NCBI GenBank assembly: GCA_964648565.1
Contig: CAZYLG010000001.1
Span: 12,315-76,314, forward strand
Source: an uncultured Thermoplasmatales archaeon
Lineage (GTDB): Archaea; Thermoplasmatota; E2; DHVEG-1
Direction: 5' to 3'
Length of the DNA: 64,000 nucleotides
How positions within the stretch are numbered: position 1 is the first letter of the stretch; every line of letters starts with the position of its first letter. A program made the translations under genes and the position numbers. Shown here piece after piece: positions 10,825 through 47,540 of this stretch. The notes under the pieces are model-generated. The model was not told the DNA's origin and ran no database searches. It saw only the letters and a program-made list of their open reading frames with translations.

Positions 10825-10825
10825 A

Positions 10826-14696: not shown

Positions 14697-14702
14697 AATA
14701 TA

Positions 14703-15065
14703 CTATTCTTGTTTTAATACATTAAATTCTAAAAATCTTTCATCATCAGGTGTTTCTTCTTTTAATTTAAATCCTATAACAACTTTTACTTTATTTTCAT
14801 CAGCTAAATTTTCTATATTTAAATCTAATATATCGACTCTTGGTTCATATAATTCAATTTGTTCGACAATTCTATCTTTTAAGAATCCTACAGTTTCATC
14901 ATCTCCTGGCTCAAATAACATAGAATTAATACTAACTCCAAAATAAGGATTCTTCAATCGCTCATTTTCATTCGTATTAAATAAGCGGCTTATTGATTCA
15001 GAAATTAAATCATGATCTTCTTTTATAATAAAAAAATCATGTCCGTACATTGCTATACCGCGCAT
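14703..15065 (-). CDS. baseplate wedge subunit gp25-like (GPW/gp25 lysozyme-like family), 120 aa
   Basis: NPYFGVSINSMLFEPGDDETVGFLKDRIVEQIELYEPRVDILDLNI aligns with T4 gp25 SRPFDPEFGCDLSDQLFENMTPLTADTVERNIESAVRNYEPRIDKLAVNV. GGAGG lies 8 nt upstream of the ATG. Confidence 0.85.
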   Translation of the reverse strand: MRGIAMYGHDFFIIKEDHDLISESISRLFNTNENERLKNPYFGVSINSMLFEPGDDETVGFLKDRIVEQIELYEPRVDILDLNIENLADENKVKVVIGFKLKEETPDDERFLEFNVLKQE

Positions 15066-30641: not shown

Positions 30642-30708
30642 ATTATAAAAAACCCATAAAATAGTAAAGATAAATTAATAAGATGGACTGCACACAGTTC
30701 TTCTTAAT

Positions 30709-33700: not shown

Positions 33701-36324
33701 CTTCATTCACTGTTGATCTCACTGTATCATCAACTGGACTCACCGACATCATTTCAGAAATTAATTCAGTATTCACAAGTGAGGGAGTAAATTCAGAAAT
33801 TGAAGCTTATGATGCCGGTTCAAATCATGTGGGTATTAAAACAATTGCTACTGGATCATCAGAAACATTTACATTAACCTCTGGATTAAATGATGCGTTA
33901 ACTACATTAGGAATGACTGCTGGAACATATACTGGTTCAGATGCAACAGCAGGTTATCAAGACGTGAATCTTGATGGACAAATAACAAGTTTATTAAATG
34001 AAAGTGGTTTAAGCCAAGGCAACACATATAATTTTGTTGTTAATGGTTCATCATATAATATAGATGTTTTAGGTCCAACATCTGGCTACCAAGAATTAGG
34101 ATTAAGTGGAATATCTGGAGGTGATGATAGCGGATTAACAGCAGGTACAGTATATAATTATAATATAAAAATCGATGGTGGTTCTGCAACACCTCAAACT
34201 GTTACATTGTCCACTGGTGATAAAGAAGTAACAGAAGTTACTTGTCCAGCAGATTCTTCACAATCATTAAGCGGAGCATACTGGTTACTGTATAGTGCAA
34301 ATGATGCTACTGAGTATTATGTATGGTATAGAATGCAAGAGACAGCAGCACAACCTGCTAGTCATACCGGCACAGCTGATTTATCAAGCGGTTATACAGG
34401 TTGGTCTTCTACACCAGAAGACTTTAACATCAATTATAGTGGTTCAGATTACAACATCGTACTTGATACGGACACTACTGATGTAGCAACTACTGTAACA
34501 GAAATTAATAATTCATTATCTACAGCTGGTCTATCAGGAATAGAAGCATTCGCTTCTAGTAATAATGTTGGTTTAAGAACAACAGCCGCTGGTTCAACTG
34601 AATCGTTTACTCTTTCTGCTGGAGACACGGTAGATGCATTATCTACATTAGGAATGACTGCTGGAACATATACTGGTTCAGATGCTACATATTCAACAGA
34701 TCCTGCTCCTTCTGGAAAAACCCCTCTACAAGTTAATATTAGTGAAGATGATACAGCAGATAGTGTTGCATCAGCCACACAATCAATAATTGATGGCAAT
34801 AGTAATTTTGATGCTACTGTTAGTACAAACGTGGTAACAACAACAAATGCAGATACTGGAGTGACGACTGATGCAAATGATCCTGCTTCTAATTTTACAT
34901 TTACGATAACAACACAGGGTACTAATGATTCTACTACATATAATGATTTAGTTACTGTTCTAAGTAGTGTGACAGGGGTAACCTGGTCAATAACTGGTGG
35001 TGATTTAAGAGCTACATCTGATACGACTGGAATATCTTCAACAATAGAATTAAGTGCTGGAGGATCACCAGATTTATTAGCTGCACTCGGGGCTTCATTG
35101 GAACCCTCTATGTCAGGATCTGACGGTACTGATACAACATGGGATAGTATTCTATTCGAATTAAACACAGAAACCTCAGGTATTGCTACATGGACAGAAG
35201 AAAGTGGAAATATTCGGTGTACTAATGATACCACTGGTTCGAGTTCAACGATAACACTTGCTGATGGAAGTACAAATAATTTATTTTCATCATTAAATTA
35301 CATACAAGCCACACATTTTATTAATCAAACTTCTGGAGTGGATGCACAACCGGCTAGCCATGACGGAACAGTCGATGTATCTGGTTCAATTGATTTTACA
35401 GACAAACGAGAAACATTAGTAATTAATAGCACTACAGTGACATTAGATGCAGATACAATCAATTTAACTGAAGTGATAGCTGAAGTTAATGATGCATTGA
35501 CTCCATTAAGTGATTTACAAGCTTATGATGCCGGTTCAAATCATGTGGGTATTAGAACAATTGCTACTGGATCATCAGAAACATTTACGATTAATTCAGG
35601 AGATGGTCTACTTACATTAGGGTGGACTGCTGGAACATATACAGGTGCAGATGCTACAGATACAACATGGTCTAATATTATATCACTAATGAATGCATCT
35701 ACGATATCAAGCTGTACATGGACAATTGTGAGTGGTGATGTTCGATGTACAGCAGATTTTACAGGAGATTCTTCGACTATTGATTTACAGCCAGGAGATA
35801 CAAATGATTTATACAATGCTTTAGGGGCTTCAACTCCATACGATACTGCAGTGGATGGTACTGATGCTTCAGATTTATTCAGTGATGTTTTAACACAGAT
35901 GAATAGTTCAACAACTATCGGTGTAACTTGGACATGGGAGAGTGGAAATATTAGAGCTACAAGAGATATGATCGGGTCAAGTTATTCAGTCATTATTTCT
36001 GCTGGACCATCAAATGATTTATTTTCAAATCTTAATGGATATATAGGAATCTCTTCTGCTGTATCTGGTTTAGATGAAGATACAACTACCGGTTCAGACT
36101 GGATAGGAGTAGAAGGTATAGAAGGAGTTACTCCAACTGGAAAATCTGTTGGAGATAGTGGTACACTACAGGAAGTATTAGAGGGGGTAGCAACAAAACC
36201 ACTAAGTCTCACTTCCGGCTCTCCATCAGATAGTCCTTTACCAGGAACAGCAAAATTTGATACATCAACAAATATATTATATGTTTATAATGGTACTTCT
36301 TGGGTAAGTACTACATTATCATAA
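30793..36324 (+). CDS. giant fibre/spike protein, 1843 aa, probable TTG start. Two DUF1565-type beta-helix domains. Three copies of a ~100-aa module are also present in the 3055-aa protein. Contains HxH..YYT motifs.
   Basis: AGGAGG at 30781..30786, 6 nt before the TTG. Beta-helix starts GNLGKPFKTISAAI (~31440) and AIDRPFTNIDDAIAAAEAGDTIFLF (~32320). Module copies sit near 33640..33960, 34390..34700 and 35380..35650. Confidence 0.8.
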   Translation: MDWKGKINFDKAITLKGKPHGIDRETTLPTFDQPQDEGRVVFTEDTKKLWVGTDTEWSELTPGGIGVHYHDDVYYTETEIDDFFEGESGGKKQVDWINITTKPTEFTPADHDNTVHSATYIEVDAVNFTNLSDNGAVGTSSNQVAVGSHNHDSSYAPLNPPANSITYDNTTSGLSSTDVQGAIDTLDLRIDYSENAVEGIFWVDNTRTDPYTETGNLGKPFKTISAAITYITTNHSGKGTIMLAESEYDETFTLGPKMSLKGFSFTKIIGSDTVTIGDGSTNGSNLIENVVFEKEVIVNMVDSVRFSNVTIQQAGFLTLTAGSIEGDISVQTNSTSPALVMNGGVLFGYNSSFTATQNSVVTHNGGELILSNSDIYGVTTDTTLISTSGIVNLSDTRVINASGSGPALSINNGATVGNPNILSNVYKVGAGDSDTAVTLIDGVFGDSTITGTAQAYRTSKRIGFDPSTSTLTSTTVQGAIDELANSHSDFQLTTTIYVDKDRTDTYTPTGAIDRPFTNIDDAIAAAEAGDTIFLFKGGYSSSGTITLPDNVNLIGMGQGKSNIYSPLETGANGKCRLEHISFRNTLTINTETYVEYIYANTTVTLNAGLQGEGFSIMVDSGPALIMNSGGSTMTLNTLSTTDTNESAVVMNAGCGVLTLQAAKIQNNSATEPALNSDGGSVILLTTSLINTGGGLAADLENESTTSNPNMLSNVIHVGGMDTDASPTIIEGVHGGDPSGTAMALRPATQIGYDPTSSGLSLTTLDVQSAIDEVAGSLGTGSAVNISYNNTDSTLDSVNVKEALDELDAEKVGSSHNHNSLYYTQSQIDTNYLSKSQLSDVTLQNERAAYQEVNLTGQNESDPSGLTPGDTYDFTIDVDSTGEQTFSITPGVATAGYQELGLGGVDAGTDSGLSSGIYYFKIKVNDNTLNQYSIELDPAEAASHVGTEDLSSGYNWENDNQDFDISVNGGSSFTVDLTVSSTGLTDIISEINSVFTSEGVNSEIEAYDAGSNHVGIKTIATGSSETFTLTSGLNDALTTLGMTAGTYTGSDATAGYQDVNLDGQITSLLNESGLSQGNTYNFVVNGSSYNIDVLGPTSGYQELGLSGISGGDDSGLTAGTVYNYNIKIDGGSATPQTVTLSTGDKEVTEVTCPADSSQSLSGAYWLLYSANDATEYYVWYRMQETAAQPASHTGTADLSSGYTGWSSTPEDFNINYSGSDYNIVLDTDTTDVATTVTEINNSLSTAGLSGIEAFASSNNVGLRTTAAGSTESFTLSAGDTVDALSTLGMTAGTYTGSDATYSTDPAPSGKTPLQVNISEDDTADSVASATQSIIDGNSNFDATVSTNVVTTTNADTGVTTDANDPASNFTFTITTQGTNDSTTYNDLVTVLSSVTGVTWSITGGDLRATSDTTGISSTIELSAGGSPDLLAALGASLEPSMSGSDGTDTTWDSILFELNTETSGIATWTEESGNIRCTNDTTGSSSTITLADGSTNNLFSSLNYIQATHFINQTSGVDAQPASHDGTVDVSGSIDFTDKRETLVINSTTVTLDADTINLTEVIAEVNDALTPLSDLQAYDAGSNHVGIRTIATGSSETFTINSGDGLLTLGWTAGTYTGADATDTTWSNIISLMNASTISSCTWTIVSGDVRCTADFTGDSSTIDLQPGDTNDLYNALGASTPYDTAVDGTDASDLFSDVLTQMNSSTTIGVTWTWESGNIRATRDMIGSSYSVIISAGPSNDLFSNLNGYIGISSAVSGLDEDTTTGSDWIGVEGIEGVTPTGKSVGDSGTLQEVLEGVATKPLSLTSGSPSDSPLPGTAKFDTSTNILYVYNGTSWVSTTLS

Positions 36325-36339: not shown

Positions 36340-39300
36340 ATGCCAAGAGATACAAATGAGAGTTCTATAAAATTAATATGGGAGAATAACCCTGATACTC
36401 CGCTAACATCCTCAGCTCTTTCTAAATCATTAGATTTTATTGCTTCATATAAAAATTATAATACAGATTATTCACCTGGAGTTCATGGTGAATTTACTCT
36501 TCTTACAATAGACCCTAACGATGCCACTCAATTGCTATTCAAACGTGGTTCCATTATACAAATTATTAATGAAGCTGAAGACGCAGGAACTCCACTCATA
36601 CCTGAAAATCAACAATATAGAATGTTTGATGTTGGTTTAGATGACATTATTATCACGTCAGAGGATACAGATGAAACACTTCCAACAAAAACAACATGGA
36701 CTGATGCATATTGGTTTGTATATATTTGTGATAGAGATGATTCGGCTATTTATGGAGAGGAATCTGGAGACGGTTATGGCGGGGGAGCTCAAATCATTAT
36801 ATCAAAACGCAACAACTACCCTGTTAACATTCAAGTACCCGGTCGTCCAAGTGATACATATACAGAAAAGGACACTCGTATTATTGGTGGATTTCAAACA
36901 AATGCTGGTAATATCATTGCCAACTCAATATGGGATATCGCTGGGTATTCAGATACAGTAAAAACAAAAAATGGATATTATGTATTAAACCCATATACGA
37001 CAGGAACCTCATATTCTTTTCGTCAAATTGATTTACGTGATCTTAATACAGATAGAAGCAACATTATTGATGGGACTCTAACAATCAATGATGATACAAT
37101 TATTAATGGAGATACAACAATATCAGGAGACATACAATTAAACAGCGATGAGTTTAATATTGACTCATCTAACGGATATATACATTATGAAGATGATGGT
37201 TCATCTGTATTATTGGAAATTAACGCTCCAACTACGTTATCTGAAACTATAACATGTAATGGTACTGTTACAATACAAAATGAGATTACTCATACTGGAA
37301 ATTATGGCATAACAGGAGATATAACACAAACTGGAGATTTATCTGTAACAGGTTCAACTACGTTAACTGGATCATTATCACAATCTAGTGGTAATGTTTC
37401 ATTTGGAGGATCAGGAGCTACTATAACAACTGCTGGTACATGGAGTCATAGTGGAAGTATAGATATTACCGGCAACCCCATAATAACCGGATCAACTACA
37501 TTAAACGGCACTGTAGTAGCAACCGCAAATTCAATTACATTGAAAAATATTGCTGATGATCTTTCTGTAGTCGTGGATAATTCATCTGATAAAATTATAT
37601 TAACAGGAGACGTGGAGATATCAGGAGATGTATATTCACATAATGGTACAGTTAGTCTTCAATCTAATGGGGATATTATTACATCAGTTCCTGGTGGAAA
37701 TACATTCAAACATTCTCAAGGATCATTTATTGTAGATAATGCAGATTTCACAGTACAACAGAATAATTCAACTCCTGTGGTTAATATCGATACTAGTGAA
37801 AAGATTACAACATTTTATGGAGATATAGTTGGAATATTAGATACTGGGAATACATTCACGCTAGAAACACCAAGTTCAGACCCAATATTTACTGTAGAGG
37901 AAGATAATGCTATATTAGAAGGGAACATGACTGTCAGAAATGATTTAACAGTAGATGGGACAATTAATGCTACTATTAGTGGTTCATCCTCTGAAGCAAC
38001 AAAATGGTCAAATACGTTAACACTACATTTTACTGATGATATGACTGGAGACGTTACATTCGATGGAAGTGAAGGCACTCTTAATGTATCTTTAACTGCC
38101 GGAAGCACAATGTATACGAAATCAGATTTAGATGGCGGGCAGTTAGATGATAGATACTATACTGAAGATGAAATTAATCCACTTGATGTATTTTCAAATC
38201 CAATCTGGAGCCCTGCTACTCCATTAGACAAACGATATTATACTAAGAATGGATTAGACACAGGACAATTAGATGGTAGATACTATAATCGTACAGATGC
38301 CGACAATGAATTCTATCCTCGTGTGGATATTATTCCAAGTAGTTCAGGACCAGGAATAGCTAGTGATTCAGATGATATGGATTGGACTGGAACAGAAATA
38401 GACTTAAGATATTATACAAAAGTCGCATTAAACCCAAATACTACTGGAGATGGAATTGGATCAGGAATCGATATAGGTGCTGCTGGTGATGGGGCGTTAG
38501 ATGATAGATACTATACTGAAACAGAAATTGTTACGAATTATTATACTAAAACAAATTTAGAAACAGAAGGTGAAGCTATAGTCCACTGGGGCAACATCAG
38601 TTTTATTCCCTATGGACAGCGAGGAAGTAGTGAGTTCATATCAAGGAATGATCATACCCACTCAATTAATTTTATTGATGCGGCAACAGAAGAATATTTA
38701 TTTGATTTACACAATGAAGAAGTAGATTGGGATTTCTCGTCTTCATTAATGGATATTAGTGTTGGGGATCTGCAATCAGAAATACAATTTTTGAGTGATG
38801 ATCCTTTAGAATATCAGGGAGTATATTTTATTCTCTATTATAATGATGGAGTAAGTACAATAGAATTTTGGTTTCAGAATAGTGGAACTCCTGCTGCCGC
38901 CCCGGACGGTACATCAACATTAGATCAAATTATTGATATCACCGGTCTAACAACAGTAACAGACATACGAGATACTGTTATTGCTGCGATTAGTGGTTTA
39001 ACTGCACCATCTCCTAATCCATTTAATGCTACAGATATTGATGATGATATAATGAGTATTACATATACTGATTTAACTACATTCGGAGATCCAGACGATT
39101 ATGTTCCTACATCATCTGATGATGGTGTTGTAGATGCATATAGAAGTTATTACGGTTCATTACACTTTGATTTGGAAAGTAATGTATATAGTAAGTCTGA
39201 AATTGATACTAATTATTATACTCAGTCTGATCTACAAACATCTGGTAGTGCTGAAGTACATTGGGGTAATATAACAACTAAGCCGACAGAATTCGCTCCA

Positions 39301-39828
39301 ACAGATCATGATAATACTGCTCATAGTGCTGTATATATTGAGGCCACAGATGTTACATATAATAATCTTAACAACAATGGAGATGTTGGTACTAGTGCCA
39401 ATCAAGTGGCTGCTGGTGATCATGATCATGATAGTGATTACTATACTGAAACAGAAACCGATTCACTATTAGCAGGAAAATCCGATACAAGTCATACTCA
39501 TCATGATTTATATTATCAAGAATCAGAATTAAATCCTGGTACATCGAGTGGACTTGCTACAGATGTTACGAATGTTACTTGGGGTACTACAGGAACACAA
39601 GATTTGTCTGGGGTATTAATTAATGATGCTGGTGGGACTACTACTTCAAATAAAAATGATGCTTCTGAGACTGATACACGTTATTATACAAAAGAGGATG
39701 TCGCTATTATTATAGATAATGTTTTACGGAATGTAGCACAACAGATTTATAATGCAGCTTCTTCTTTAGATCTTACTTTTACTAATCCTATTAATGGAAG
39801 TGGTATTAATAAAGATGGATATGCATAA
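36340..39828 (+). CDS. tail-fibre protein, 1162 aa. Its N-terminal module LIWENNPDTP..SKS is shared with the 657-aa and 1277-aa proteins. Also has a beta-helical GxxTxTG repeat and repeated D(D/G)RYYT(K/E)xE and HDHD motifs.
   Basis: GGGAG precedes the ATG. RIIGGFQTNAGNIIANSIWDIAGY is conserved in its paralogues. The segment ~39240..39440 is about 75% nt-identical to 1843-aa gene segment ~31090..31260. Confidence 0.8.
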   Translation: MPRDTNESSIKLIWENNPDTPLTSSALSKSLDFIASYKNYNTDYSPGVHGEFTLLTIDPNDATQLLFKRGSIIQIINEAEDAGTPLIPENQQYRMFDVGLDDIIITSEDTDETLPTKTTWTDAYWFVYICDRDDSAIYGEESGDGYGGGAQIIISKRNNYPVNIQVPGRPSDTYTEKDTRIIGGFQTNAGNIIANSIWDIAGYSDTVKTKNGYYVLNPYTTGTSYSFRQIDLRDLNTDRSNIIDGTLTINDDTIINGDTTISGDIQLNSDEFNIDSSNGYIHYEDDGSSVLLEINAPTTLSETITCNGTVTIQNEITHTGNYGITGDITQTGDLSVTGSTTLTGSLSQSSGNVSFGGSGATITTAGTWSHSGSIDITGNPIITGSTTLNGTVVATANSITLKNIADDLSVVVDNSSDKIILTGDVEISGDVYSHNGTVSLQSNGDIITSVPGGNTFKHSQGSFIVDNADFTVQQNNSTPVVNIDTSEKITTFYGDIVGILDTGNTFTLETPSSDPIFTVEEDNAILEGNMTVRNDLTVDGTINATISGSSSEATKWSNTLTLHFTDDMTGDVTFDGSEGTLNVSLTAGSTMYTKSDLDGGQLDDRYYTEDEINPLDVFSNPIWSPATPLDKRYYTKNGLDTGQLDGRYYNRTDADNEFYPRVDIIPSSSGPGIASDSDDMDWTGTEIDLRYYTKVALNPNTTGDGIGSGIDIGAAGDGALDDRYYTETEIVTNYYTKTNLETEGEAIVHWGNISFIPYGQRGSSEFISRNDHTHSINFIDAATEEYLFDLHNEEVDWDFSSSLMDISVGDLQSEIQFLSDDPLEYQGVYFILYYNDGVSTIEFWFQNSGTPAAAPDGTSTLDQIIDITGLTTVTDIRDTVIAAISGLTAPSPNPFNATDIDDDIMSITYTDLTTFGDPDDYVPTSSDDGVVDAYRSYYGSLHFDLESNVYSKSEIDTNYYTQSDLQTSGSAEVHWGNITTKPTEFAPTDHDNTAHSAVYIEATDVTYNNLNNNGDVGTSANQVAAGDHDHDSDYYTETETDSLLAGKSDTSHTHHDLYYQESELNPGTSSGLATDVTNVTWGTTGTQDLSGVLINDAGGTTTSNKNDASETDTRYYTKEDVAIIIDNVLRNVAQQIYNAASSLDLTFTNPINGSGINKDGYA

Positions 39829-39860
39829 AAAAAGCTCCTCGAAAGAGGAGCTCTATATAT
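39826..39860. terminator. bidirectional intrinsic terminator: AGCTCCTC-GAAA-GAGGAGCT hairpin with an A7 tract upstream and a T-rich tract downstream
   Basis: Perfect 8-bp stem 39833..39840 / 39845..39852 with a GAAA loop. On the minus strand TTTTTTT follows the stem. It lies between the convergent 1162-aa gene and the lipoprotein gene. Confidence 0.8.
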
Positions 39861-39877
39861 CATTAAATTGGTTTTAA

Positions 39878-40594
39878 TTATTGTTTAATAAATTCATGCA
39901 ATGTACTATTACCAAACTTTGTAGTATTATCGGAAACAACATCTGGATCCCAGTGAGTTTCGAATTCGAAATCATCACCTATATTTTCTTTTGTCCAAAT
40001 TTCAAATTCAGCATTTTCACCGCTTCCATTATCATTTTCTACTACTTTCCAATCAGCAAAGTTCATATCGACATCACCTAACCAATAGTTAACTCTTTGA
40101 AATCTAGCTGTACCATCAGAATTAAAAGTCCAGATATCAGTGGTAGTTTGACCACCTTCGTCGAATTCTCGTTCCCAGGTTCCATCAAGAACATCACCAT
40201 CAGATACATAAGAGTAATCATATACCTCTATAGTAACACTGTCAGTATAACCACCGTCATCAGTTTCGAATTCAATGGTTACATTCTTAACAGTATCAGT
40301 GACAGAATCATCGAATGAAATAGAATCTTCAGTTACATTAACACCCGAGGGGGCGGTGACAGTGACGTCAGTATTGTCTGCGTCATTCGGTTTAACTTTG
40401 ATTTCAATGCCTATGCTTTCATTGTCATAAGCAACCAATTTGTCTGCTACTACCGTGATGCTTTCAACATCAATGGTATCATCACCAGTATCTTCAGGCG
40501 GATCCATCGAAATATCACACCCAAACATAACAACCAACGCAACCAAAACCATCATTACAATCATCATTTTCTTCATAATCTCTAAATCCTCCAT
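39878..40594 (-). CDS. secreted lipoprotein-like acidic protein, 238 aa from the first ATG. The likely true start is the second Met at 40576, giving MKKMMIVMMVLVALVVMFGC...
   Basis: Signal peptide with KK, a hydrophobic core and Cys at position 20 (lipobox-like VMFGC). GGAGG lies 7 nt upstream of the second ATG. The mature part is rich in Asp, Thr and Glu. Its own terminator lies downstream. Confidence 0.6.
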   Translation of the reverse strand: MEDLEIMKKMMIVMMVLVALVVMFGCDISMDPPEDTGDDTIDVESITVVADKLVAYDNESIGIEIKVKPNDADNTDVTVTAPSGVNVTEDSISFDDSVTDTVKNVTIEFETDDGGYTDSVTIEVYDYSYVSDGDVLDGTWEREFDEGGQTTTDIWTFNSDGTARFQRVNYWLGDVDMNFADWKVVENDNGSGENAEFEIWTKENIGDDFEFETHWDPDVVSDNTTKFGNSTLHEFIKQ

Positions 40595-40612
40595 AGATTT
40601 AATATAATATTA

Positions 40613-40804
40613 TTATACAACAGCATCATCAACTGCTAAATTTTTTTCTTCAAAAAACTCACAAATTTTTTCTTTAGGTATATATTGTGGGTTTTCAGAT
40701 TTAAATGTACCTTCAGAATAATAACATCGTGCGTTATATATGAGAGCAGAGAATTTACATTCACGGCAAGTTTTCTTTAATAACATCAACTTTGCTTTAT
40801 TCAT
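40613..40804 (-). CDS. small Cys-containing protein, 63 aa (CRECK...C..), possibly zinc-binding
   Basis: ORF directly upstream of the lipoprotein gene on the minus strand, with the same orientation. Confidence 0.35.
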   Translation of the reverse strand: MNKAKLMLLKKTCRECKFSALIYNARCYYSEGTFKSENPQYIPKEKICEFFEEKNLAVDDAVV

Positions 40805-40901
40805 AATACTATTATACTATATATAAACTATCTGCTAAAATAATCTTAAAACATTTCAGAAAAACTACAAAGATAATTAAAAATATATACGGAGAGGAAA
40901 T

Positions 40902-42875
40902 ATGTATAATAGTGCTGGTTCACTTAAAATGTGGGAGAATAATGCCGACACTCCGATAACAGCATCAAATTTATCAAAATCAATTAATTTTCAAGCTTCT
41001 TCAAAATTCATCTATTTAACCACAGAAGAAGATGATTATGAATTATGGGCAGATGTTGTTATCACTGGAGATTTTCCATTAGAATCAGAGATATCAACTG
41101 AATGGGCGAATAAAATGGTATATAATTCAGATACAGGAGTAGCGAAAAAAGCTGTATATGATAATTCAGGATTTCAATGGCAACCTATACGAACTGAAGA
41201 TCGTTTTGATACTACAAACAGACTTTTAAAGGTTAAGGGTGGTATCCAAATTGCCATGTCGTATGTAGATAAAGACACATCTGCCCGAGTATATGAAAAC
41301 TTTGATTTTGGTTCTGATGATCAGGTTATATCATTTGATGATGTATTGAATGAAGATTTCACGTTAAGTAATTTTAATTCATATACAGTATATAATATTT
41401 ATTTAATGCATAATTTTTCATATGGAGATAATGCATATTGTAAAATTATATCTTCAGCTGACCAGACTAAAACATATTGGAAAGAAATTGCAGATAATCC
41501 GTTAAGTCCTACTGGTAATGAAGTGATCTCATATAGAAAAATCGGTGGATTCAAGACTGATTCAAATGGAGAAATCATAGAAGACTCTATATGGGATTTG
41601 TTTACATATAGAGAAGAAGTTACGGTAGAAAAGATAAATAAATATGAGGACGGTGTCGTAAGAGAAATTAATGCTAGTGATATAAATATTGTTAATGATC
41701 AACAAATATTTAATGCTACTGATGTTGAAGGAGCTATTCAAGAATCACGATTTCTATTAAATAGTATTCAAGAACAATTCTATACAAATAAAAGAATCGG
41801 AGCCAACTTAAAGTTTAGTCCTTTTAAAATAGATACATCTGGGGATTTAATTCAAACTGCGATTAACGAATTAACATTAATGATTTCCTCTGGGTATATT
41901 GATGTATTAGGAACACAAAAAGTTATTGATGATAATGTATTTCTTAATAGTTCGACTTTACCGATTAGTGTTAATGATGCTACTCCTGTAACTGGAGTGA
42001 CATTGGGTTCAGGAACAAATAAATTAGATGCTGGTATCTGGAGAGTATATTTAGATGCTTCTAATTCAATTACGTCTGGGAATATTACTATAAAAAAAGA
42101 TACTGTAGAACGTCCTCGTTTTCGTCCAGAAAATTATGGTTGGTTTGACTCATTAGGTAATCGTTGTATAGGAAAATTTAAAGTACGAGACGATAACGGT
42201 TTTTATATTGAAAAAATGTCGGTGACAGACACATTCGATCAAAATGTTCCACCTAATACCATTCATATTCATCATGGAACATTAGTACCTGATGGGTTAT
42301 TATTATGTGATGGAAAATGGCATGATGTAATAGGAATAGATAATAATGTATATAGTACATGGAGTGATTTGGTGGCCGCAGTAGGAATGGATTGGGGTGA
42401 TAGTTGGTATGAAGAAACTCCCAATTTAATGGATACATTTTTAAAGATGCCACCATTGTCATACATTAATATGAATACAGGACAAAATTTTACATTGCCT
42501 ACAGGTGGGGCAGAATCGAATGGAGGATCAGCGGATTGTGGAAGAACAGGGGGAGCAAACACTCATATTCATGAATTTCCACATCAACATGGAACTGGTA
42601 ATATTAATATTATATCCAGTGGAGCTCATCCCCAACAACATTCAGTAGCATTCAGTGGAACTACAGATTCAGTTACAGTCGAGACCGTACCATCTGGATC
42701 TACAGTCTCAGTAGAAGAACATACACATAATATGATTATAAGTGGTGGTAACCATAATCATCCTACAGAATCAGTACAAGGGAATACTGAGAGATTGGAA
42801 GATGCGGATGCAGAAACAGATTCTGCTAGTAGTTTACCACCGTATAAAGAAATGCTTTTTTGCATTAAAAAATAA
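40902..42875 (+). CDS. tail-fibre protein, 657 aa. It shares the N-terminal module MWENNADTP..SKS and the RKIGGFKTD..SIWD motif. The His-rich C-terminus has a phage-tail-collar-like motif.
   Basis: GGAGAGG precedes the ATG. C-terminus: NFTLPTGGAESNGG...HIHEFPHQH...HTHNMIISGGNHNHP. Confidence 0.75.
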   Translation: MYNSAGSLKMWENNADTPITASNLSKSINFQASSKFIYLTTEEDDYELWADVVITGDFPLESEISTEWANKMVYNSDTGVAKKAVYDNSGFQWQPIRTEDRFDTTNRLLKVKGGIQIAMSYVDKDTSARVYENFDFGSDDQVISFDDVLNEDFTLSNFNSYTVYNIYLMHNFSYGDNAYCKIISSADQTKTYWKEIADNPLSPTGNEVISYRKIGGFKTDSNGEIIEDSIWDLFTYREEVTVEKINKYEDGVVREINASDINIVNDQQIFNATDVEGAIQESRFLLNSIQEQFYTNKRIGANLKFSPFKIDTSGDLIQTAINELTLMISSGYIDVLGTQKVIDDNVFLNSSTLPISVNDATPVTGVTLGSGTNKLDAGIWRVYLDASNSITSGNITIKKDTVERPRFRPENYGWFDSLGNRCIGKFKVRDDNGFYIEKMSVTDTFDQNVPPNTIHIHHGTLVPDGLLLCDGKWHDVIGIDNNVYSTWSDLVAAVGMDWGDSWYEETPNLMDTFLKMPPLSYINMNTGQNFTLPTGGAESNGGSADCGRTGGANTHIHEFPHQHGTGNINIISSGAHPQQHSVAFSGTTDSVTVETVPSGSTVSVEEHTHNMIISGGNHNHPTESVQGNTERLEDADAETDSASSLPPYKEMLFCIKK

Positions 42876-42885
42876 GGAGGATTAT

Positions 42886-43380
42886 ATGTCATTTCCAACA
42901 TCACCTACAGATGGTGATATACATCAACAATATGTTTATAATGGTACAGTAGGAGTATGGGACAAAATGGATCCTAGTAAATATTATCCAATAGGGTTTA
43001 TATATGTTCAATTTCCTAGTCAATCATCTCCAGGAGATTTAGGATGGTATGGTACATGGACTAATGTTTCTTCAACATACGCAGGTGATTTCTTTAGGGC
43101 TGAAGGAGGAGATGCTAGTGCTTTTGGAGGTGGAGAACAATTGGATCAGATGCAAGGGCATTATCACAAACTTGGGCAATTAGGTAATCCCGATTATTAT
43201 GATGCGCGTAATTGGTGCGGTGGAAGTAGTTCTGATGAGATTGCTCCTACTAACTCAGGAGCGACTACTCAACCATTCGCTACAACTCCGTATAATGATC
43301 AAACAAATGGAGAACCTCGCACTGGATCAGAAACAAGACCAGTAAATCAAACTGTAAGAGTATGGAAGAGAACAGCGTAA
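42886..43380 (+). CDS. phage tail collar domain protein, 164 aa, with N-terminal MSFPTSPTDG motif shared with the 3055-aa protein
   Basis: The true start is the ATG at 42886, after AAGGAGG. The ORF track started at 42742 inside the upstream gene. GDFFRAEGGDASAFGGGEQLDQMQGHYH matches the tail-collar pattern ..RG....G..Q.D..Q.H.H. Confidence 0.7.
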   Translation: MSFPTSPTDGDIHQQYVYNGTVGVWDKMDPSKYYPIGFIYVQFPSQSSPGDLGWYGTWTNVSSTYAGDFFRAEGGDASAFGGGEQLDQMQGHYHKLGQLGNPDYYDARNWCGGSSSDEIAPTNSGATTQPFATTPYNDQTNGEPRTGSETRPVNQTVRVWKRTA

Positions 43381-43396
43381 TATAGAGGAGAATAAA

Positions 43397-43705
43397 ATGG
43401 TATATATACAATTATCAGAACCAATACGAGGGTATAATAAAGTAGCAGTTACCCAATTTAGTTATTTTGAACAAGCAGAATTTGGAGCAGATACATCAAT
43501 ATCATTTAAGTATATTGTATTTAAAGATGTATCCAGCGAAAGAATAGTATTATACGAAAAGGTAGTAGATATTAATGATGAATTTATTAATAGATTAAAA
43601 AATCAACAAAATAAAAATCTTTCGTCATTCGATGGATTTTGTCGTATATTATTAGAATATTTAATAGAGAACTCAATAGAAACTGGAACGTTAGAGGTAC
43701 GTTAA
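43397..43705 (+). CDS. hypothetical protein, 102 aa; possible fibre assembly or adaptor factor
   Basis: GAGGAG precedes the ATG. It sits between the collar-domain gene and the fibre gene. Confidence 0.45.
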   Translation: MVYIQLSEPIRGYNKVAVTQFSYFEQAEFGADTSISFKYIVFKDVSSERIVLYEKVVDINDEFINRLKNQQNKNLSSFDGFCRILLEYLIENSIETGTLEVR

Positions 43706-43706
43706 T

Positions 43707-46700
43707 ATGGCATCATTTAAATTATTATGGGAAAATAACCCAGACACTCCAATAGATTCTAATCGATTATCAAGTTCTATAGATTATTATTCCAAACAAT
43801 CTATTTTATACTTTGATAGTAATGAATTGGAAAGTGGAGAAGATATATTAAAATTACGAAGTAATGTAAAAGTAAATATAGAAATCCCTACTACATTATC
43901 TGCATGGGATTTTAATAATTCATTAGTTTCATATAATAGTAAATTTGCTCCAGAAGACGCAGAAAATATTATTTTTAGAGATGAATATAATAATTCTCCA
44001 GGGAGTGTTGCGATTGATGCAGCAATCGATAATGTTCTAACAAATTCAGGATTCGAGAGTGGTTTAACTGATTGGACATTTACTGATGATAATGGTTCTA
44101 TTGTTTCAGTATCCACGTCTGAATATTATCCGTCAAATCTAAGTACTCAATCTGCAGAAATAACTGTTAATTCAAGTGGAACACTTTGTGAATTATCTCG
44201 TCAATCCGATACAAGTACAGTAGTTGGAAACTATTCACTATCATTTTATTATAAAACAAGTACAGATTTATATTTACAAATTAAAACATTTAAAAATGGT
44301 AATGATAATTATTGGAATGGCAATAATTGGGTATTTTCCCAGGCATACTTTACGATGCCTTATACAGATAATCAATGGCATAGATATGAAATGCAAGAAA
44401 TCGATGTTAGTCTTATTAATTATGTAGAAATCATTTTGTATTCTGATTATCCTAATTCGACTCATTATGTTGATTCATTTCTTTTAGAATTAAAAGATTA
44501 TTGTTCATCATATTATCCAACATCTATTGGTGATTCTCTTCTCACGTACAGTAGAGATGTTATTATTCTTCGAGAAGGTTTGATTGATTTTACATTTTAT
44601 CCTAAAATAAAAGAGGATGTAACATTATTTCTAGTAAAAAGCGTAAGCGGCAACGATTTATTAAAACTTGTATTCGATGAAAGTGAAAATAAATTTGTTT
44701 TTACGATTTATGATAAAAACACATCACAAGAATTGACGTATGATATAATTTTTAATTTTGATAATATTATTGATGAATGGACAAGAGTAATAATTAGTTG
44801 GAGTGAAACACTAAAAAAAGTATACGTAAATATCGGAACATATTTACGAGAATTTGATTTACCTACTGGGTATTTTGCTGAAGATCAAAGCAATATTAGT
44901 AAAGTATATATAGGAAGTGATTCTGACGGTACTCATCTTGCTAAATCATTATTTGAATTCCTGAAATTTGACATAGAATATAAAAATTTAGATGAAATTA
45001 ATAATTTACTTCTTTATCCTTCTGAAATTAATGATAGTGATTTTAAAGTATTCGAAAATGAAAATAAATCATTAATTATTAACCATCATTTATTAGATAC
45101 TGGCACAAATTTTGCTAATAATAGAACATATTATATTTGGGTTGCAGACAATAATGACGGTGATAGTTGTGAGCTGTTGGTGTCATTGAGCGATCATAAT
45201 CCTTCTGGATATATTTGGTATCGATCACGGATTATCGGTGGATTTAGAACTGATTCAAGTAGAAATATTATAAAAAATAGTGTATGGGATATTAGTACTA
45301 AATTAACTACTAATTTACATATTGACAGATTATTAATTGGAGGAACCCGAACCCTGACAATTGATGATGTTGGAGCTGGTGAAGATCCTACTCCAGTAGA
45401 AATTAGTACTACCCCGTATGGTGATGTAAATAATGCTATTTATAATATTGACTCCTATTTCACGCGACATGTATACGGAAGAAATATTACAGATGGAAAT
45501 TTTTTAGATATTGATAATGAAAATGGATCTATAACAATAGATGATATTCATATAGATGGTCATATAATGAATTCAAATGATACAGATTTTGAGCTGTATG
45601 CTTCTGGTTCGAATACTCTTTCTTTACATTCAGATGAAATTATAATAACATCTGAGGGAACAGACGTAAAAATTGATGATATACGAATATTGAATAATAC
45701 GATATATGTGGCAAATGGGAATGATTTAATTATTAATTCAAATATTGATGATGCAACAAGTGATAATAATATTCAGGTGATTGCAAATGATGTGATAGTA
45801 GAACCTAAAAACGATTTTGTTGTCGATGCTGATAATCAGATACAATTAACTGCAGAAAATTCTATATTGATAACATCAAATACGAATAATATAGTTACGT
45901 CTTCAAACAATTTTACCGTATCGACTGATAATATTATTACTTTAGACGATATAAAAATTGATGCTAATAAAATTTATCGTGACGGAACATTAGAAGTAAT
46001 TAATATAGAATCAACTGGTAACATTAATATTAATTCATTAGACGAGAATGTAACAATAGAAGAAATCGATTTTAATGATAATAAAATTTTTCAAACAAAT
46101 GATGTTCATCGTTATATATCATTTTATGATGATGGAAGTCCTGTGGGGTTTTCAGATTCTGCAGAAAATATTGATATCGCAGCTGGTAATAAAGTAGTTA
46201 TTGATTCTCCTGTATTCCATGTTAAATCACAGGAAGTGTGGTTTGAGGCTGATTTATCTGATTTCATACGATTAGATTATATAAAAATTAATGGAAGTCA
46301 GTTGTATACTGAAACTGGATACCCTTTGAGTATATTATCACCAGAGAATATAACAATAAATTCTGGTTCTACACTGTCACTTCAAGGACCGCCTGTACAG
46401 ATTGAAAATATAACATTAACCGATAAAACACTTGAACCATTAGACGGGGCATGGACATTAGGGAATATTATACATCAAACAAATATTAAAGGTAATGGGT
46501 TTGATGTATATAGTGAAACTGGATACGTAGATTTTAGTTCAGATATACGGGTAAGTAGTGGTAGTGGTTCTATTTTAGCGAATGCTTCATCTGCTACAGA
46601 ATTTGAAACTGCTGTAGATTTAGATTTTGCTTCTACTGATACTACTCAAATGGATACATATAATCAAGTATATACATTAACAGGAACCGAAGGTACAATT

Positions 46701-47540
46701 GATGTTGATGTGACACATACTCATGATGGTCGTTATTATACTGAAACAGAGGCAGATAATAGATTCGTAAATATGAATGGTGATACGATGACTGATGATT
46801 TAAATTTTACTATTACAGCTTCTGCGACATCAAAAGGGATAACATGGACCGGATTAACTGACGAGCATAAAATTTATGTCGAGGAGACTGCGGGAGGTGA
46901 AGAAACATCATTAATTATAGAAAGTGGAAATAACGCAGGTACTGATAAAACTATTTTTAGAAATAGAGACGGAGTAGCTCCTATTGATGTATTAACATTA
47001 AACAATAATTTAGTTCATTCTCATAAAGATGTTCAAATTGGTGATTCTGGAACATTAGAATATAACCAGTCAAACCCAGTTGGAACAGAGATATTAGGGT
47101 ATAATGGTTATTTTTATGCAAACAGGGTATATAATGCTGTATGGCAAGATTTAGCCGAATGTTGGGAAAAGAATCCTCAATATACATTTGGATATAATAT
47201 TGTTGTAGTACAAACTGAACATGGAGTAAGACCATCAATGAAACGCGCAGAGAAAACAACAGTAGGAGTAATTTCTGATACATATGGTTATATTTTGAAT
47301 GCAGATAAACTTTTTGAACATGATTTAAATAAATCAGAATCTGTTCCTGTAGCGATTGCTGGTAGAGCGATTGTAGCTTATGTAGGAGATATAGCGATTG
47401 GAGATGAGGTCGTATCATATAAAAATGGTAATTCAATTAAAGCGAATATATTTGAAAAAATATGTAAGCGAGATAGGATCCTTGGAAAGGTTGATAAAAT
47501 CTTGTCTTCAAATCTGATTAAAATAAAAGTTTATGGATAA
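43707..47540 (+). CDS. tail-fibre protein, 1277 aa. It shares the N-terminal module LLWENNPDTP..SSS and has a CBM-like jelly-roll domain and a distinct C-terminal domain.
   Basis: The CBM-like domain NVLTNSGFESGLTDWTF...YVDSFLLEL sits at ~44030..44500. RIIGGFRTDSSRNIIKNSVWDIS is conserved. HTHDGRYYTETEADNRF lies near 46720. Confidence 0.8.
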   Translation: MASFKLLWENNPDTPIDSNRLSSSIDYYSKQSILYFDSNELESGEDILKLRSNVKVNIEIPTTLSAWDFNNSLVSYNSKFAPEDAENIIFRDEYNNSPGSVAIDAAIDNVLTNSGFESGLTDWTFTDDNGSIVSVSTSEYYPSNLSTQSAEITVNSSGTLCELSRQSDTSTVVGNYSLSFYYKTSTDLYLQIKTFKNGNDNYWNGNNWVFSQAYFTMPYTDNQWHRYEMQEIDVSLINYVEIILYSDYPNSTHYVDSFLLELKDYCSSYYPTSIGDSLLTYSRDVIILREGLIDFTFYPKIKEDVTLFLVKSVSGNDLLKLVFDESENKFVFTIYDKNTSQELTYDIIFNFDNIIDEWTRVIISWSETLKKVYVNIGTYLREFDLPTGYFAEDQSNISKVYIGSDSDGTHLAKSLFEFLKFDIEYKNLDEINNLLLYPSEINDSDFKVFENENKSLIINHHLLDTGTNFANNRTYYIWVADNNDGDSCELLVSLSDHNPSGYIWYRSRIIGGFRTDSSRNIIKNSVWDISTKLTTNLHIDRLLIGGTRTLTIDDVGAGEDPTPVEISTTPYGDVNNAIYNIDSYFTRHVYGRNITDGNFLDIDNENGSITIDDIHIDGHIMNSNDTDFELYASGSNTLSLHSDEIIITSEGTDVKIDDIRILNNTIYVANGNDLIINSNIDDATSDNNIQVIANDVIVEPKNDFVVDADNQIQLTAENSILITSNTNNIVTSSNNFTVSTDNIITLDDIKIDANKIYRDGTLEVINIESTGNININSLDENVTIEEIDFNDNKIFQTNDVHRYISFYDDGSPVGFSDSAENIDIAAGNKVVIDSPVFHVKSQEVWFEADLSDFIRLDYIKINGSQLYTETGYPLSILSPENITINSGSTLSLQGPPVQIENITLTDKTLEPLDGAWTLGNIIHQTNIKGNGFDVYSETGYVDFSSDIRVSSGSGSILANASSATEFETAVDLDFASTDTTQMDTYNQVYTLTGTEGTIDVDVTHTHDGRYYTETEADNRFVNMNGDTMTDDLNFTITASATSKGITWTGLTDEHKIYVEETAGGEETSLIIESGNNAGTDKTIFRNRDGVAPIDVLTLNNNLVHSHKDVQIGDSGTLEYNQSNPVGTEILGYNGYFYANRVYNAVWQDLAECWEKNPQYTFGYNIVVVQTEHGVRPSMKRAEKTTVGVISDTYGYILNADKLFEHDLNKSESVPVAIAGRAIVAYVGDIAIGDEVVSYKNGNSIKANIFEKICKRDRILGKVDKILSSNLIKIKVYG

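Follow-up and report, generated by a model that had tools for sequence, protein, structure and literature searches.

Results

Three fibre genes with a common N-terminal module

The window, by which we mean the whole 64-kb stretch of DNA analysed, comes from a large uncultured phage, probably a myovirus. It encodes three fibre proteins of 1162 aa (A), 657 aa (B) and 1277 aa (C), all on the plus strand (Table 1). The trio genes are located among baseplate wedge genes and giant fibre-like genes.

Table 1. Features of the fibre locus and its neighbours, in window positions.
Feature	Position	Strand	Basis or remark
Baseplate wedge genes	10462..15065	-	PHROG baseplate wedge matches, E=3e-20 and E=2e-26
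120-aa ORF in wedge cluster	10462-10824	-
gp6/J-like gene	10826-13102	-
Homing-endonuclease ORF, inserted among wedge genes	13095-14696	-
gp25-like gene	14703-15065	-
1843-aa fibre-like protein, directly upstream of A	30793..36324	+
Gene A, 1162 aa, A-type fibre, distal part most variable of trio	36340..39828	+	ORF
A motif 1, conserved N-terminal peptide, aa 9-33, SIKLIWENNPDTPLTSSALSKSLDF	36364..36438	+
A beta-sandwich core, aa about 50-205	36487..36954	+	AF2 model; PF21916 via family profile
A motif 2, aa 174-201	36859-36942	+	inside sandwich core
A beta-helical shaft, GxxTxTG / bactofilin-like repeats, aa 234-560	37039..38019	+	Pfam
A distal part, aa 561-1162, D-x-RYYT-x-E fibre repeats and intercalated domains	38020..39825	+
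Gene B, 657 aa, B-type fibre, conserved end to end in clade	40902..42875	+	ORF
B N-terminal module, aa 1-240	40902..41621	+	module profile, AF2
B motif 1, aa 7-35	40920-41006	+
B motif 2, aa 202-235	41505-41606	+
B helix (aa 275-294) and beta domain (aa 300-441)	41724..42224	+	AF2 secondary structure
B His-rich tip, aa 442-657, PDGLLLCDGKWHD, C-terminal PPYKEMLFCIKK	42225..42872	+
102-aa ORF, precedes every C-type gene	43397..43705	+
Gene C, 1277 aa, C-type fibre with split module	43707..47540	+	ORF
C motif 1, aa 2-39	43710..43823	+	module profile positions 5-43, domain E=1e-8
C intra-module insertion, aa 40-442	43824..45032	+	stands in for module profile positions 44-90
C second sandwich half with motif 2, aa 443-534	45033..45308	+	Pfam PF21916
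C N/D-rich shaft, presumed beta-solenoid, aa 535-957	45309..46577	+	sequence composition
C distal part of mature fibre, aa 958-1117, HTHDGRYYTETE at aa 1003	46578..47057	+	tblastn
C C-terminal intramolecular chaperone, aa 1148-1277	47148..47537	+	family profile

As the initial annotation had recognised, all three proteins begin with a common motif 1, WENN(P/A)DTP...LS.S, whose onset lies at aa 14, 11 and 8 of A, B and C, respectively. A second motif, R(I/K)IGGF..S(I/V)WD(I/L), is also carried by each protein. It had been placed at about 200 to 240 aa throughout, but its positions in A, B and C are aa 180, 212 and 508. The consensus proposed for the two motifs contained small slips of residue and spacing: an I precedes the W in A, the (T/D)(S/A)S of the consensus reads DSN in C, and within motif 2 the spacing of A is not that of B, by one residue. 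Scanned with a six-frame regular expression and with an HMM, the whole window contains the module only in the A, B and C reading frames.

The similarity is not confined to fewer than 20 residues: the alignment of A with B extends from aa 9 to aa 266 (28% identity, E=4e-10). When C is compared with A and with B, two blocks are common to each pair, one of 26 aa (62% identity) and one of 29-59 aa (39-55%), with E-values of 5e-7 to 5e-5. The resemblance among the three modules is far above chance. The shared part spans ~200-235 aa. A module profile matches aa 1-248 of A (E about 5e-94) and aa 5-278 of B (E about 1e-48), and its positions 91-202 match the second half of the split module in C (E=2.6e-14). 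Searched against 1.84 billion representative proteins, the profile yields 86 matches at E<=1e-3, almost all of which are A-, B- or C-type proteins. Between types, identity is 44-49% in motif 1 and about 40% in motif 2, compared to 7-21% in the remainder of the module, which points to one common constraint, for example a common partner or interface.

In AF2 models, the sandwich region of A (aa 51-200) consists entirely of beta strands, with mean pLDDT of 82-95 per 10-residue block except at aa 131-150 (57-64). The corresponding blocks of B (aa 31-230) range from 70 to 90, except aa 91-100 (57). In both models pLDDT is low around motif 1 (<50 in the A monomer), yet no segment is more strongly conserved. 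Such a conserved but poorly ordered N-terminal peptide looks like one that binds a partner.

A divergent Mtd-type sandwich forms the module core

What kind of fold do the three proteins have in common? The core of the module is a divergent version of the second-domain beta-sandwich of Mtd (Pfam PF21916). C matches this family at aa 454-521 with 34.1 bits (cut-off 24.6 bits; E=3.6e-8), and distant relatives reached via the module profile are strong members, with E-values of 1e-15 to 1e-32; compared directly with PF21916, A and B do not reach the cut-off. For the B-family profile, Mtd is the best PDB match, aligned at RK(V/I)GGF...SLWD(I/L) so that motif 2 falls on Mtd residues 123-171 (E=0.1). 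For the AF2 models of both A and B, the HFTV1 tail fibre gives the top structural match, at its base (PDB 9h7v_BG; E=3e-3 and E=1.8e-2 for the two models). The BFVD entry A0A410N721 is also matched (E=2.2e-4, probability 0.99), and further BFVD matches carry the name 'Receptor Binding Protein'. With TM-scores of 0.23-0.33, every structural match is weak, and Mtd (1yu0 and related entries) is not among the Foldseek matches of either model. Mtd itself is located on fibre ends (PMC2408619), where its N-terminal prism and sandwich are presumed to fix the trimer to the fibre (PMC10743442). Profiles, models and the analogy with Mtd together support the view that this common N-terminal part belongs to the fibre-attachment type.

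Distal parts of A, B and C

Behind the module, the distal parts look, by sequence, like fibre or receptor-binding parts. The idea of a common anchor with different tips stands, inasmuch as an attachment-type module is followed by fibre-like distal parts; the complete divergence once described for these parts does not, as A and C have short H-x-H-D-x-(R)YYTETE fibre motifs in common, which also occur in the neighbouring 1843-aa and 1692-aa proteins.

The A sequence is identical to P0046. Its shaft matches Pfam Bactofilin with E=1.3e-5 and 25.8 bits, under the 27.9-bit cut-off, and homologues are named 'CcmA (bactofilin family)' by JGI. The distal repeats belong to families D6, D7 and D10; HxH sites lie at aa 772, 1028 and 1052, and aa 959-1034 share 56% identity with a segment of the 1843-aa protein (aa 74-155). 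Neither a chaperone domain nor a match in Pfam, PDB or the phage collection was detected for this distal part, the most variable of the trio. Total length varies from 503 to 1162 aa among the A-type proteins of the compared loci (503-1013 aa in the other loci), and of four relatives, two are similar over aa 1-260 only and the remaining two up to aa 610-670.

B is conserved over its whole length, with 34-42% identity to four orthologues; its family has 16 members of 622-684 aa. In the AF2 model, block-mean pLDDT is 64-85 for aa 301-440 and a less confident 52-71 for the preceding helix, while the model fails at the tip (pLDDT <50 in the monomer). HxH pairs start at aa 555, 561, 607 and 618 of the tip, and H555, 557, 561, 563, 576, 607, 609, 618 and 620 are invariant across the 16 family members. 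The Pfam Collar domain is found in 2/16 of these (E=0.02); the window's B protein has no significant Collar (PF07484) match and no PDB sequence match.

C, identical in sequence to P0086, has a split module. The CBM-like domain, assigned to the distal part in the initial annotation, lies within a ~400-aa insertion inside the module (aa 40-442), between motifs 1 and 2. This insertion comprises a CBM-like jelly roll (~aa 108-200) followed by a LamG/ConA-like domain. Its profile matches CBM61 (PDB 2xom) with E=0.0085, and among 11 C homologues CBM_4_9 is found in two (E=0.0036) and Laminin_G_3 in two (E=3.4e-8). The CBM, LamG and G2 assignments come from family profiles and homologues, the window's C protein having no direct Pfam match for these domains. 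No significant Pfam match was obtained for the C shaft either. In ~25 C-type relatives, conservation covers aa 1-700/900 and the final ~140 aa; alignment is lost between ~aa 680 and 900, and the later shaft and the tip after it are most variable. Residues 958-1117 match, at 40-50% identity (E about 1e-4), a protein named 'long tail fiber distal subunit' in 50 Vibrio phages of the KVP40-like group.

The C-terminal family profile of C aligns with residues 689-745 of the phi29 pre-neck appendage gp12 (E=5e-6), placing the family motif vWnDlAEcwe on gp12 TWSDFAEYFE. The separately solved C-terminal chain of gp12, 3gqh, starts at the aligned D. Peptidase_G2 is detected in 9/16 family members (best E=1e-4), and D1148 and E1151 are invariant. 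From this alignment, we predict self-cleavage of C before D1148.

A fixed trio with unequal variation

Exactly three module copies are found in the window and in the stretch read (~9-23 kb) of nine other loci; the order A, B, C is identical in 10/10 related metagenomic loci examined (clade contigs, 137 to 481 kb). Identity between types is 25.0% within one genome versus 24.9% between genomes. By this measure, A, B and C are old paralogues without gene conversion or concerted evolution. In the window, we saw no inversion or DGR-like repeats, invertible segment or other switching device.

Strong variation exists only in A and in the middle of C. B, conserved end to end, and C, conserved over ~700-900 aa, are consequently not free host-range cassettes.

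Neighbouring genes

Orthologues of the 1843-aa protein, from 263 to >2428 aa long, lie directly upstream of the A-type gene in 10/10 loci. Their N-terminal ~190 aa and last ~40 aa are kept, with a hugely variable middle. Its position makes this protein a candidate for carrying A or for acting as its partner. The 102-aa ORF is 31-41% identical to the same-position ORF in four other loci (L001, L003, L004, L005), without a Pfam or PHROG match; it is a candidate assembly factor or small connector. The wedge proteins are candidate docking partners of the fibres.

Discussion

Why would one phage encode three fibres with the same attachment end? We consider it somewhat more probable than not that A, B and C are old paralogous fibres or spikes, mounted simultaneously via a common attachment module and dividing labour. 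The module would consist of the short conserved N-terminal peptide (WENNPDTP..LSKS) and an Mtd second-domain-type beta-sandwich whose final strands bear R-x-IGGF...S-x-WD. It would anchor each fibre on the tail, either at the baseplate periphery or on another fibre, and the peptide would probably fold only upon binding. The three proteins are probably trimeric. The virion would carry A, B and C together, with tasks split among them. A, with its fast-evolving distal part, may be the main host-range determinant. B would be a conserved fibre whose His-x-His tip presumably binds metal and which, like short tail fibres, likely recognises a conserved surface component. C would present two lectin-like domains inside its anchor in addition to a variable distal end, and would trimerise with the aid of its phi29 gp12-type chaperone, later released by self-cleavage. 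A fixed old trio without gene conversion, inversion or DGR-like repeats fits three fibres used at once better than a switch, and in other phages several RBPs with a common N-terminus, carried together, widen recognition (PMC6872550, PMC13352976).

Could the modules dock onto another fibre protein, so that a branched or jointed, multi-tipped appendage results? By analogy with Mtd, the partner of the module could be another fibre rather than the baseplate, as Mtd-type modules join fibre ends (PMC2408619, PMC10743442), and branched RBP complexes are known (PMC6872550, PMC13352976). The obvious candidate carrier would be the variable-length protein upstream of A (1843 aa here), which adjoins A in every locus and combines conserved ends with a middle of ~30 to >2000 aa; its C-terminal motif has sub-threshold matches to DUF2793 and Mtd_N (E 0.05-0.16). 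These Pfam hints are not significant, however, and the adjacency concerns A only, not B or C. Nor did Pfam reveal a T4 gp10-like branching domain, the sole trace being Gp10_C (E=0.5) in a different small ORF. We regard a branched appendage as unlikely.

The initial annotation viewed the trio as an alternative or switchable set, with the RBPs competing for, or switched at, a single baseplate site. One partner surface could indeed accept any of them, the N-terminal peptide being nearly identical in the trio, and in other phages different RBPs are docked by shared N-terminal peptides (PMC6872550). Against a switchable host range, the order and number of the genes are fixed in all ten loci, the types are separate orthologous groups of old origin without homogenisation, B is conserved end to end, no switching device is seen in the window, and known multi-RBP phages bear their RBPs simultaneously (PMC6872550). 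We give this proposal little chance.

The conserved motifs could also serve trimerisation or folding rather than docking. The module would then be a 'starter' inherited from one ancestral fibre gene without a common docking role; attachment would proceed via other parts, or some of the proteins would not be fibres at all, B for instance having a structural role at the periphery of the baseplate. In Mtd, the sandwich belongs to an intertwined trimer (PDB 1YU0), the motifs lie within the compact beta-sandwich of the AF2 models, and the end-to-end conservation of B would suit a structural protein. This account is very improbable, given that the most conserved peptide lies no more than 8-17 residues from the N-terminus and has little order in the monomer models, and that all known fold relatives have the sandwich at the attached end of receptor-binding proteins.

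How does the favoured arrangement, three fibres mounted together, compare to known systems? Klebsiella Menlow and PhiK64-1 groups, K1-5/SP6, G7C and CBA120 likewise combine a short conserved RBP N-terminus with unrelated distal domains. Those multi-RBP phages use T7 gp17-type anchors and T4 gp10-like branching domains, with peptides of 7-11 or more residues, whereas here we find a ~200-235-aa Mtd-sandwich module and no gp10-like domain. Also unlike in those phages, the distal parts are fibres without a recognised depolymerase, and two of the trio are conserved rather than serotype cassettes.

T4-type fibres offer a parallel to B and C. In T4 fibres, metal ions are coordinated by HxH pairs. B resembles the T4 short tail fibre gp12 in its repeated invariant HxH pairs and has a collar-like tip (PDG..CDG.W / PPYKE..CIKK), but its N-terminal attachment is of another type; C aa 958-1117, through their likeness to the KVP40-like distal subunit, recall the distal long tail fibre gp37. 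The W-x-D-x-A-E site of C aligns with that of the phi29 gp12 auto-chaperone (PDB 3GQH, 6QZ9; Peptidase_G2, PF11962). A gp12-like end, which in C makes up the last 130 aa, is also present in some short A-type relatives. The alignment with gp12 covers no more than its initial ~55 residues, and the window protein stays below Pfam detection; cleavage is a prediction.

HFTV1 (Haloferax tailed virus 1) gp42 (PDB 9H7V/9H5B) is a trimeric fibre held on the baseplate hub by the N-terminal base that was matched, and siphovirus RBPs such as that of Lactococcus phage 1358 were matched alongside it in BFVD. The similarity to gp42 is weak (TM-score 0.23-0.31, 10-13% identity), HFTV1 is a siphovirus of archaea, and no relationship to the module was detected at the sequence level.

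A further close system is Mtd, the major tropism determinant of Bordetella phage BPP-1 (PDB 1YU0-1YU4, 2IOU). Its beta-sandwich ends in S-x-PTG....RK(V/I)GGF....SLWD(I/L) and lies just ahead of the receptor-binding part of a trimeric receptor-binding protein, the N-terminal region being the presumed attachment end (PMC10743442, PMC2408619). Unlike Mtd, the proteins described here have the WENNPDTP peptide in place of an N-terminal beta-prism, are without C-type lectin domain or DGR repeat, continue into long shafts after the module and occur as three paralogues per genome, one of which (C) is interrupted by the 400-aa lectin-like insertion. The three proteins form a sequence family that is new; the design behind it is well known.

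Results

A module shared by three fibre genes and split in one of them

The coordinates and lengths of the three large fibre genes, here called A, B and C, agree with those of the initial annotation and are listed in the table. All three proteins carry the peptide WENN(P/A)DTP (motif 1) and, further along, R(I/K)IGGF...S(I/V)WD(I/L) (motif 2). Motif 2 had been placed at about 200 to 240 aa throughout, which fits B, is slightly off for A and is wrong for C. BLASTP aligns A with B over aa 9-266 (28% identity, E=4e-10), and aligns C with A or B in the two motif blocks only (26 aa at 62% and 29-59 aa at 39-55% identity). On these alignments the N-terminal similarity is not confined to fewer than 20 residues. 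An HMM based on 21 modules of A and B type matches exactly three ORFs of the 64-kb window. It matches C twice, with profile positions 5-43 at aa 1-39 and 91-202 at aa 443-534, and the module of C therefore contains an insertion of about 400 aa.

A set of multiple receptor-binding proteins is expected to share an N-terminal segment between at least two fibre genes and to differ in fibre- or receptor-binding-like distal parts. Three genes share the segment in the window, as do three in each of nine related metagenomic loci. The distal parts, fibre- or receptor-binding-like in type, show no pairwise similarity past the module (BLASTP), as had been described, but short RYYT motifs are shared.

Features of the window: position, strand, length and motif starts
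Feature	Position	Strand	Length (aa)	Motif 1 from (aa)	Motif 2 from (aa)
Giant fibre-like protein	763-9930	+
gp6/J-like baseplate wedge gene	10826-13102	-
ORF between the wedge genes	13095-14696	-	533
gp25-like baseplate wedge gene	14703-15065	-
Giant fibre-like protein	18006-28853	+
Small paralogous ORFs	29495-30641
Tandem units of about 300 nt	29517-30714	+
Giant fibre-like protein upstream of A	30793-36324	+	1843
A	36340-39828	+	1162	14	180
ORF between A and B	39878-40594	-	238
B	40902-42875	+	657	11	212
ORF after B	42886-43380	+	164
ORF before C	43397-43705	+	102
C	43707-47540	+	1277	8	508
Giant fibre-like protein	49239-54317	+	1692
Protein sharing a module with the 1692-aa protein	55410-56453	+	347
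Auxiliary genes	56778-63009	-

An old trio with a fixed gene order

A word-indexed search returned 28 relatives of the module proteins, and an HMM search run exhaustively over 1.84 billion representative proteins returned 86 at E<=1e-3, divided approximately into 37 of A type, 17 of B type, 25 of C type and 9 distant ones. All are metagenomic, and the collection includes the window's own A and C. Contigs with family members measure 137 kb, 224-388 kb and 370-481 kb; the clade therefore includes huge phages. Searching INPHARED by tblastn with the A module, B and distal A gave no match, and PHROGs gave essentially nothing for A, B and C.

The gene order of the window recurs in all nine other loci fetched: a fibre gene of variable length, the A type, a variable slot of small genes, the B type, an ORF of about 100 aa and the C type. 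The step with the 100-aa ORF is shown for L001 and L003-L005, where the C-type gene is followed by two to three conserved small genes and then by a protein of about 1680-1690 aa. In the stretch read of each locus the HMM finds exactly three copies of the module. Copies of different type are 25.0% identical when taken from one genome and 24.9% when taken from two, and from this equality we conclude that the triplication is old and that the copies are not being homogenised. Only motifs 1 and 2 stay similar across the three types (44-49% and about 40% identity); the remaining module stands at 7-21%.

The 102-aa ORF lies directly before the C-type gene in five of five genomes compared (31-41% identity) and has no family match; possible roles are assembly factor and small connector. 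The sole match in a genome collection, L007 (CAZLSE010000003.1, a 47.6-kb contig), carries the A-B-C trio and was binned with an uncultured Gammaproteobacteria MAG. This binning and a likeness of C to KVP40-like Vibrio phage fibres hint weakly at a host among the Gammaproteobacteria, possibly a marine one; we dropped host identification from the binning, a weak clue rather than evidence.

Sequence links between the module and the sandwich domain of Mtd

PF21916, the second domain of Mtd, the receptor-binding protein of a Bordetella phage, matches C at aa 454-521 with 34.1 bits (E=3.6e-8; gathering cut-off 24.6 bits). It has no direct match in A and B and matches weakly in 4 of 21 A- and B-type modules (best E=0.0012). 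P0105-P0114, distant relatives reached by the module profile, match PF21916 at E 1e-15 to 1e-32 and carry the motif SRKIGGF.TD..G.I.E.S.WDLRT, as the family modules do. Through them the A and B modules are linked transitively to PF21916.

In a profile search of the PDB, the B family finds six Mtd entries as its best matches, aligned exactly at motif 2 (E=0.1). SSPTG..VI.YRKIGGFKT...IIEDSLWDLS of the B family is set against Mtd residues 123-171, SAPTGYTSTTARKVGGFHY...INEYSLWDIK, and so matches the motif with which the Mtd sandwich ends (SAPTG..ARKVGGF....EYSLWDIK). With an E-value of only 0.1 the support comes from the motif match and not from statistics: the match is striking and, taken alone, not significant. 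Single-sequence PDB searches with A, B and C returned nothing, and the module profile (A2) gave a chance match only.

AF2 models of A and B contain a confident beta-sandwich, with a mean pLDDT of 82-95 in most 10-residue blocks of aa 51-200 in A and of 70-90 in most blocks of aa 31-230 in B. The conserved N-terminal peptide is poorly ordered in both (pLDDT <50). Foldseek searches with these models did not recover the solved Mtd structure. Their top match, obtained independently with each, is the tail fibre of Haloferax tailed virus 1 (HFTV1), as PDB 9h7v_BG (E=3e-3 and E=1.8e-2 for the two models) and as a BFVD entry (E=2.2e-4, probability 0.99). Other BFVD matches are named 'receptor binding protein', and all TM-scores are low (0.23-0.33). 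The N-terminal base of the HFTV1 fibre sits on the baseplate hub; the paper that describes it makes no comparison with Mtd (bioRxiv 10.1101/2024.12.09.627619). We conclude, mainly from profile homology, that the module is probably a divergent attachment domain of the Mtd-sandwich type that follows a clade-specific N-terminal peptide.

Distal parts of A, B and C

In A, GxxTxTG repeats with sub-threshold Bactofilin matches occupy aa 234-560, and D-x-RYYT-x-E repeats with three HxH sites occupy aa 561-1162; aa 959-1034 are 56% identical to the 1843-aa protein encoded just upstream. A-type relatives in the compared loci range from 503 to 1162 aa, some of them with a C-terminal chaperone of Peptidase_S74 or G2 type.

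Conservation of B extends along the entire protein (34-42% identity). A helix (aa 275-294) is followed by a beta domain (aa 300-441) and by a tip with invariant histidines (H555/557, 561/563, 576, 607/609 and 618/620), the motif PDG..CDG.WHD and, at the C-terminal end, PPYKE..CIKK. The tip had been called collar-like and His-rich. The histidines and HxH sites are confirmed, but Pfam lends the collar label little weight: PF07484 (Collar) does not match B of the window and matches 2 of 16 homologues at E=0.02. The B-family profile finds no gp12 in the PDB either, and a T4 gp12-like or Collar tip was thus not found. The AF2 model of aa 442-657 has a pLDDT <50.

The insertion in C (aa 40-442) is kept across all C types and, in family-level searches, looks like a CBM followed by a LamG/ConA-like domain. 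Then come the second half of the sandwich and an N/D-rich shaft. Alignment with relatives ends at about aa 680-900 and resumes at about aa 1103-1148. Over aa 958-1117, C is similar to the long tail fibre distal subunit encoded by KVP40-like Vibrio phages. Its last 130 aa show homology to the auto-chaperone of phi29 gp12, including the cleavage-site motif, with W-Q-D1148-L-A-E aligned to W-S-D-F-A-E of gp12. The C-terminal family profile matches 6qz9_A residues 689-745 (E=5e-6) and 3gqh (E=1e-4) in the PDB, PF11962 (Peptidase_G2) matches 9 of 16 family members but not C of the window, and D1148 and E1151 are invariant in the family. By this homology the conserved C-terminus is an assembly device and not a receptor-binding tip, and cleavage of C before D1148 is predicted.

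The fibre gene upstream of A

To what do the modules attach? If they follow Mtd, their partner could be a further fibre. The gene immediately preceding each A-type gene, in the window and in L001, L003-L005 and L007-L011, is a positional candidate because conserved ends flank a variable middle. Its N-terminal 190 aa or so are kept, as are its last 40 aa or so (..PSDSP..GT.RFD..TN.LY[IV]YNG..W.ST.L), around a middle of about 30 to >2000 aa; the protein measures 263 aa in L001, 1843 aa in the window and >2428 aa in L009. In Pfam the C-terminal motif points to DUF2793 and Mtd_N below threshold only, and a PDB profile search with it gave nothing. One could picture a jointed appendage with several tips, an Mtd-type unit split across genes in which the conserved, prism-like C-terminus of the upstream fibre would socket the modules of A, B and C, each made up of the WENNPDTP peptide and the sandwich. 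Three different tips would then sit on one carrier, whose length (263 to >2428 aa) would set the reach. We consider this arrangement improbable. The C-terminal motif as a specific socket present three times was rejected, since a regular expression finds one copy in the window; the related hairpin motifs, being general fibre building blocks, also speak against such a socket. Stop-codon readthrough from the 1843-aa gene into A was likewise rejected: in the window the two share a frame with one stop between them, but the frames differ in L001 and L004 and two stops intervene in L005.

Surrounding genes

The window holds the tail-fibre region of a large, uncultured myovirus. Its G+C content is about 31%, and a run of very large ORFs occupies the plus strand (3055, 3615, 1843, 1162, 657, 1277 and 1692 aa). 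Identity of the gp6-like protein to its counterparts in T4-like cyanophages and other myoviruses is only about 25%, and megablast of the region DNA against the INPHARED phage collection gave no match. The two baseplate wedge genes are split by the homing-endonuclease-like 533-aa ORF, which matches homing endonuclease/HNH, Vsr, Mom and DUF7487 families.

The non-conserved 238-aa ORF between A and B has a signal peptide and a lipobox-like LVALVVMFGC. Different small genes fill this slot in each related genome, and the slot behaves as a cargo or moron site would. The 164-aa ORF, with PTSPTDGD..YVYNGTVGVW at its N-terminus, has weak PHROG tail-fibre matches and a Gp10_C match at E=0.5; it is missing between B and the 102-aa ORF in four of four compared loci (L001, L003-L005). 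Just upstream of the 1843-aa gene, five diverged tandem copies of a unit of about 300 nt (60-80% identity) correspond to a series of small paralogous ORFs.

Module sharing is widespread in the giant fibre-like proteins. A second shared N-terminal module joins aa 90-245 of the 1692-aa protein, whose length is steady across relatives (1680-1692 aa), to aa 1-158 of the 347-aa protein (31% identity, E=4e-16; phrog_9417). A repeated domain of about 130 aa is common to the 1843-aa and 3055-aa proteins (46% identity), repeated WK.PV..GDLP...GD.R hairpin units are common to the 1692-aa and 3615-aa proteins, and the phrog_24210 unit occurs in about 12 copies within the 3055-aa protein. Downstream of the fibre cluster lie genes for a CCA-adding tRNA nucleotidyltransferase, a DnaJ homologue, a radical SAM/SPASM protein and a DHH/DHHA1 phosphoesterase. 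Auxiliary sets of this kind are typical of very large phages.

Discussion

Our results fit three fibres carried at the same time, each attached by a module of one common type. A would be the rapidly diversifying receptor-binding member of the trio, B the conserved member with a presumably metal-stabilised tip, and C a lectin-decorated fibre that would mature by self-cleavage. The initial annotation had read the three as a common anchor with different tips, and in kind this reading is supported. Its further claims fared differently. We found no support for docking to one baseplate site. A Pfam scan detected no T4 gp10-like branching domain. A host-range cassette role for all three is disfavoured by the full-length conservation of B. 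The proposal of alternative or switchable fibres is likewise unsupported, and no switching device was found in the window.

New are a module sequence family that lacks both cultured representatives and a PHROG, its putative Mtd-sandwich nature, a fixed and old trio in a clade with huge phages among its members, and the split module of C. The analysis thus defines a small, previously undescribed family of attachment modules (86 among 1.84 billion proteins, none from cultured phages) and a conserved three-fibre set in an uncultured phage clade with contigs up to 481 kb. It gives domain boundaries for engineering and expression, namely a module end near aa 235-240 in both A and B and the predicted cleavage of C before D1148, and it directs the search for host-range variation to A and the middle of C.

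How do these fibres compare with known systems? The prism and sandwich at the N-terminus of Mtd are the presumed link between trimer and fibre (PMC10743442), and Mtd trimers are located at fibre ends (PMC2408619). If the sequence relationship holds, the second-domain type of Mtd would extend from the DGR-diversified tips of podoviruses to the long fibres of large myoviruses. An Mtd-type DGR system of tropism switching combines a C-type lectin (CLec) variable domain with a template/variable repeat pair and a reverse transcriptase. Unlike in such a system, no CLec domain was found in A, B and C, and the 64-kb window has no near-identical long direct repeats of the TR/VR kind; a DGR or other switching device was dropped on the latter ground. 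There is ample documentation of receptor-binding protein sets with a common N-terminal anchor or short conserved docking peptide, among them those of K1-5/SP6, G7C, CBA120 and the Klebsiella Menlow and PhiK64-1 groups (PMC6872550, PMC13352976). A shared anchor with different tips being so well established, current understanding is not overturned: like these multi-receptor-binding-protein phages, the trio combines a shared N-terminal part with different distal parts.
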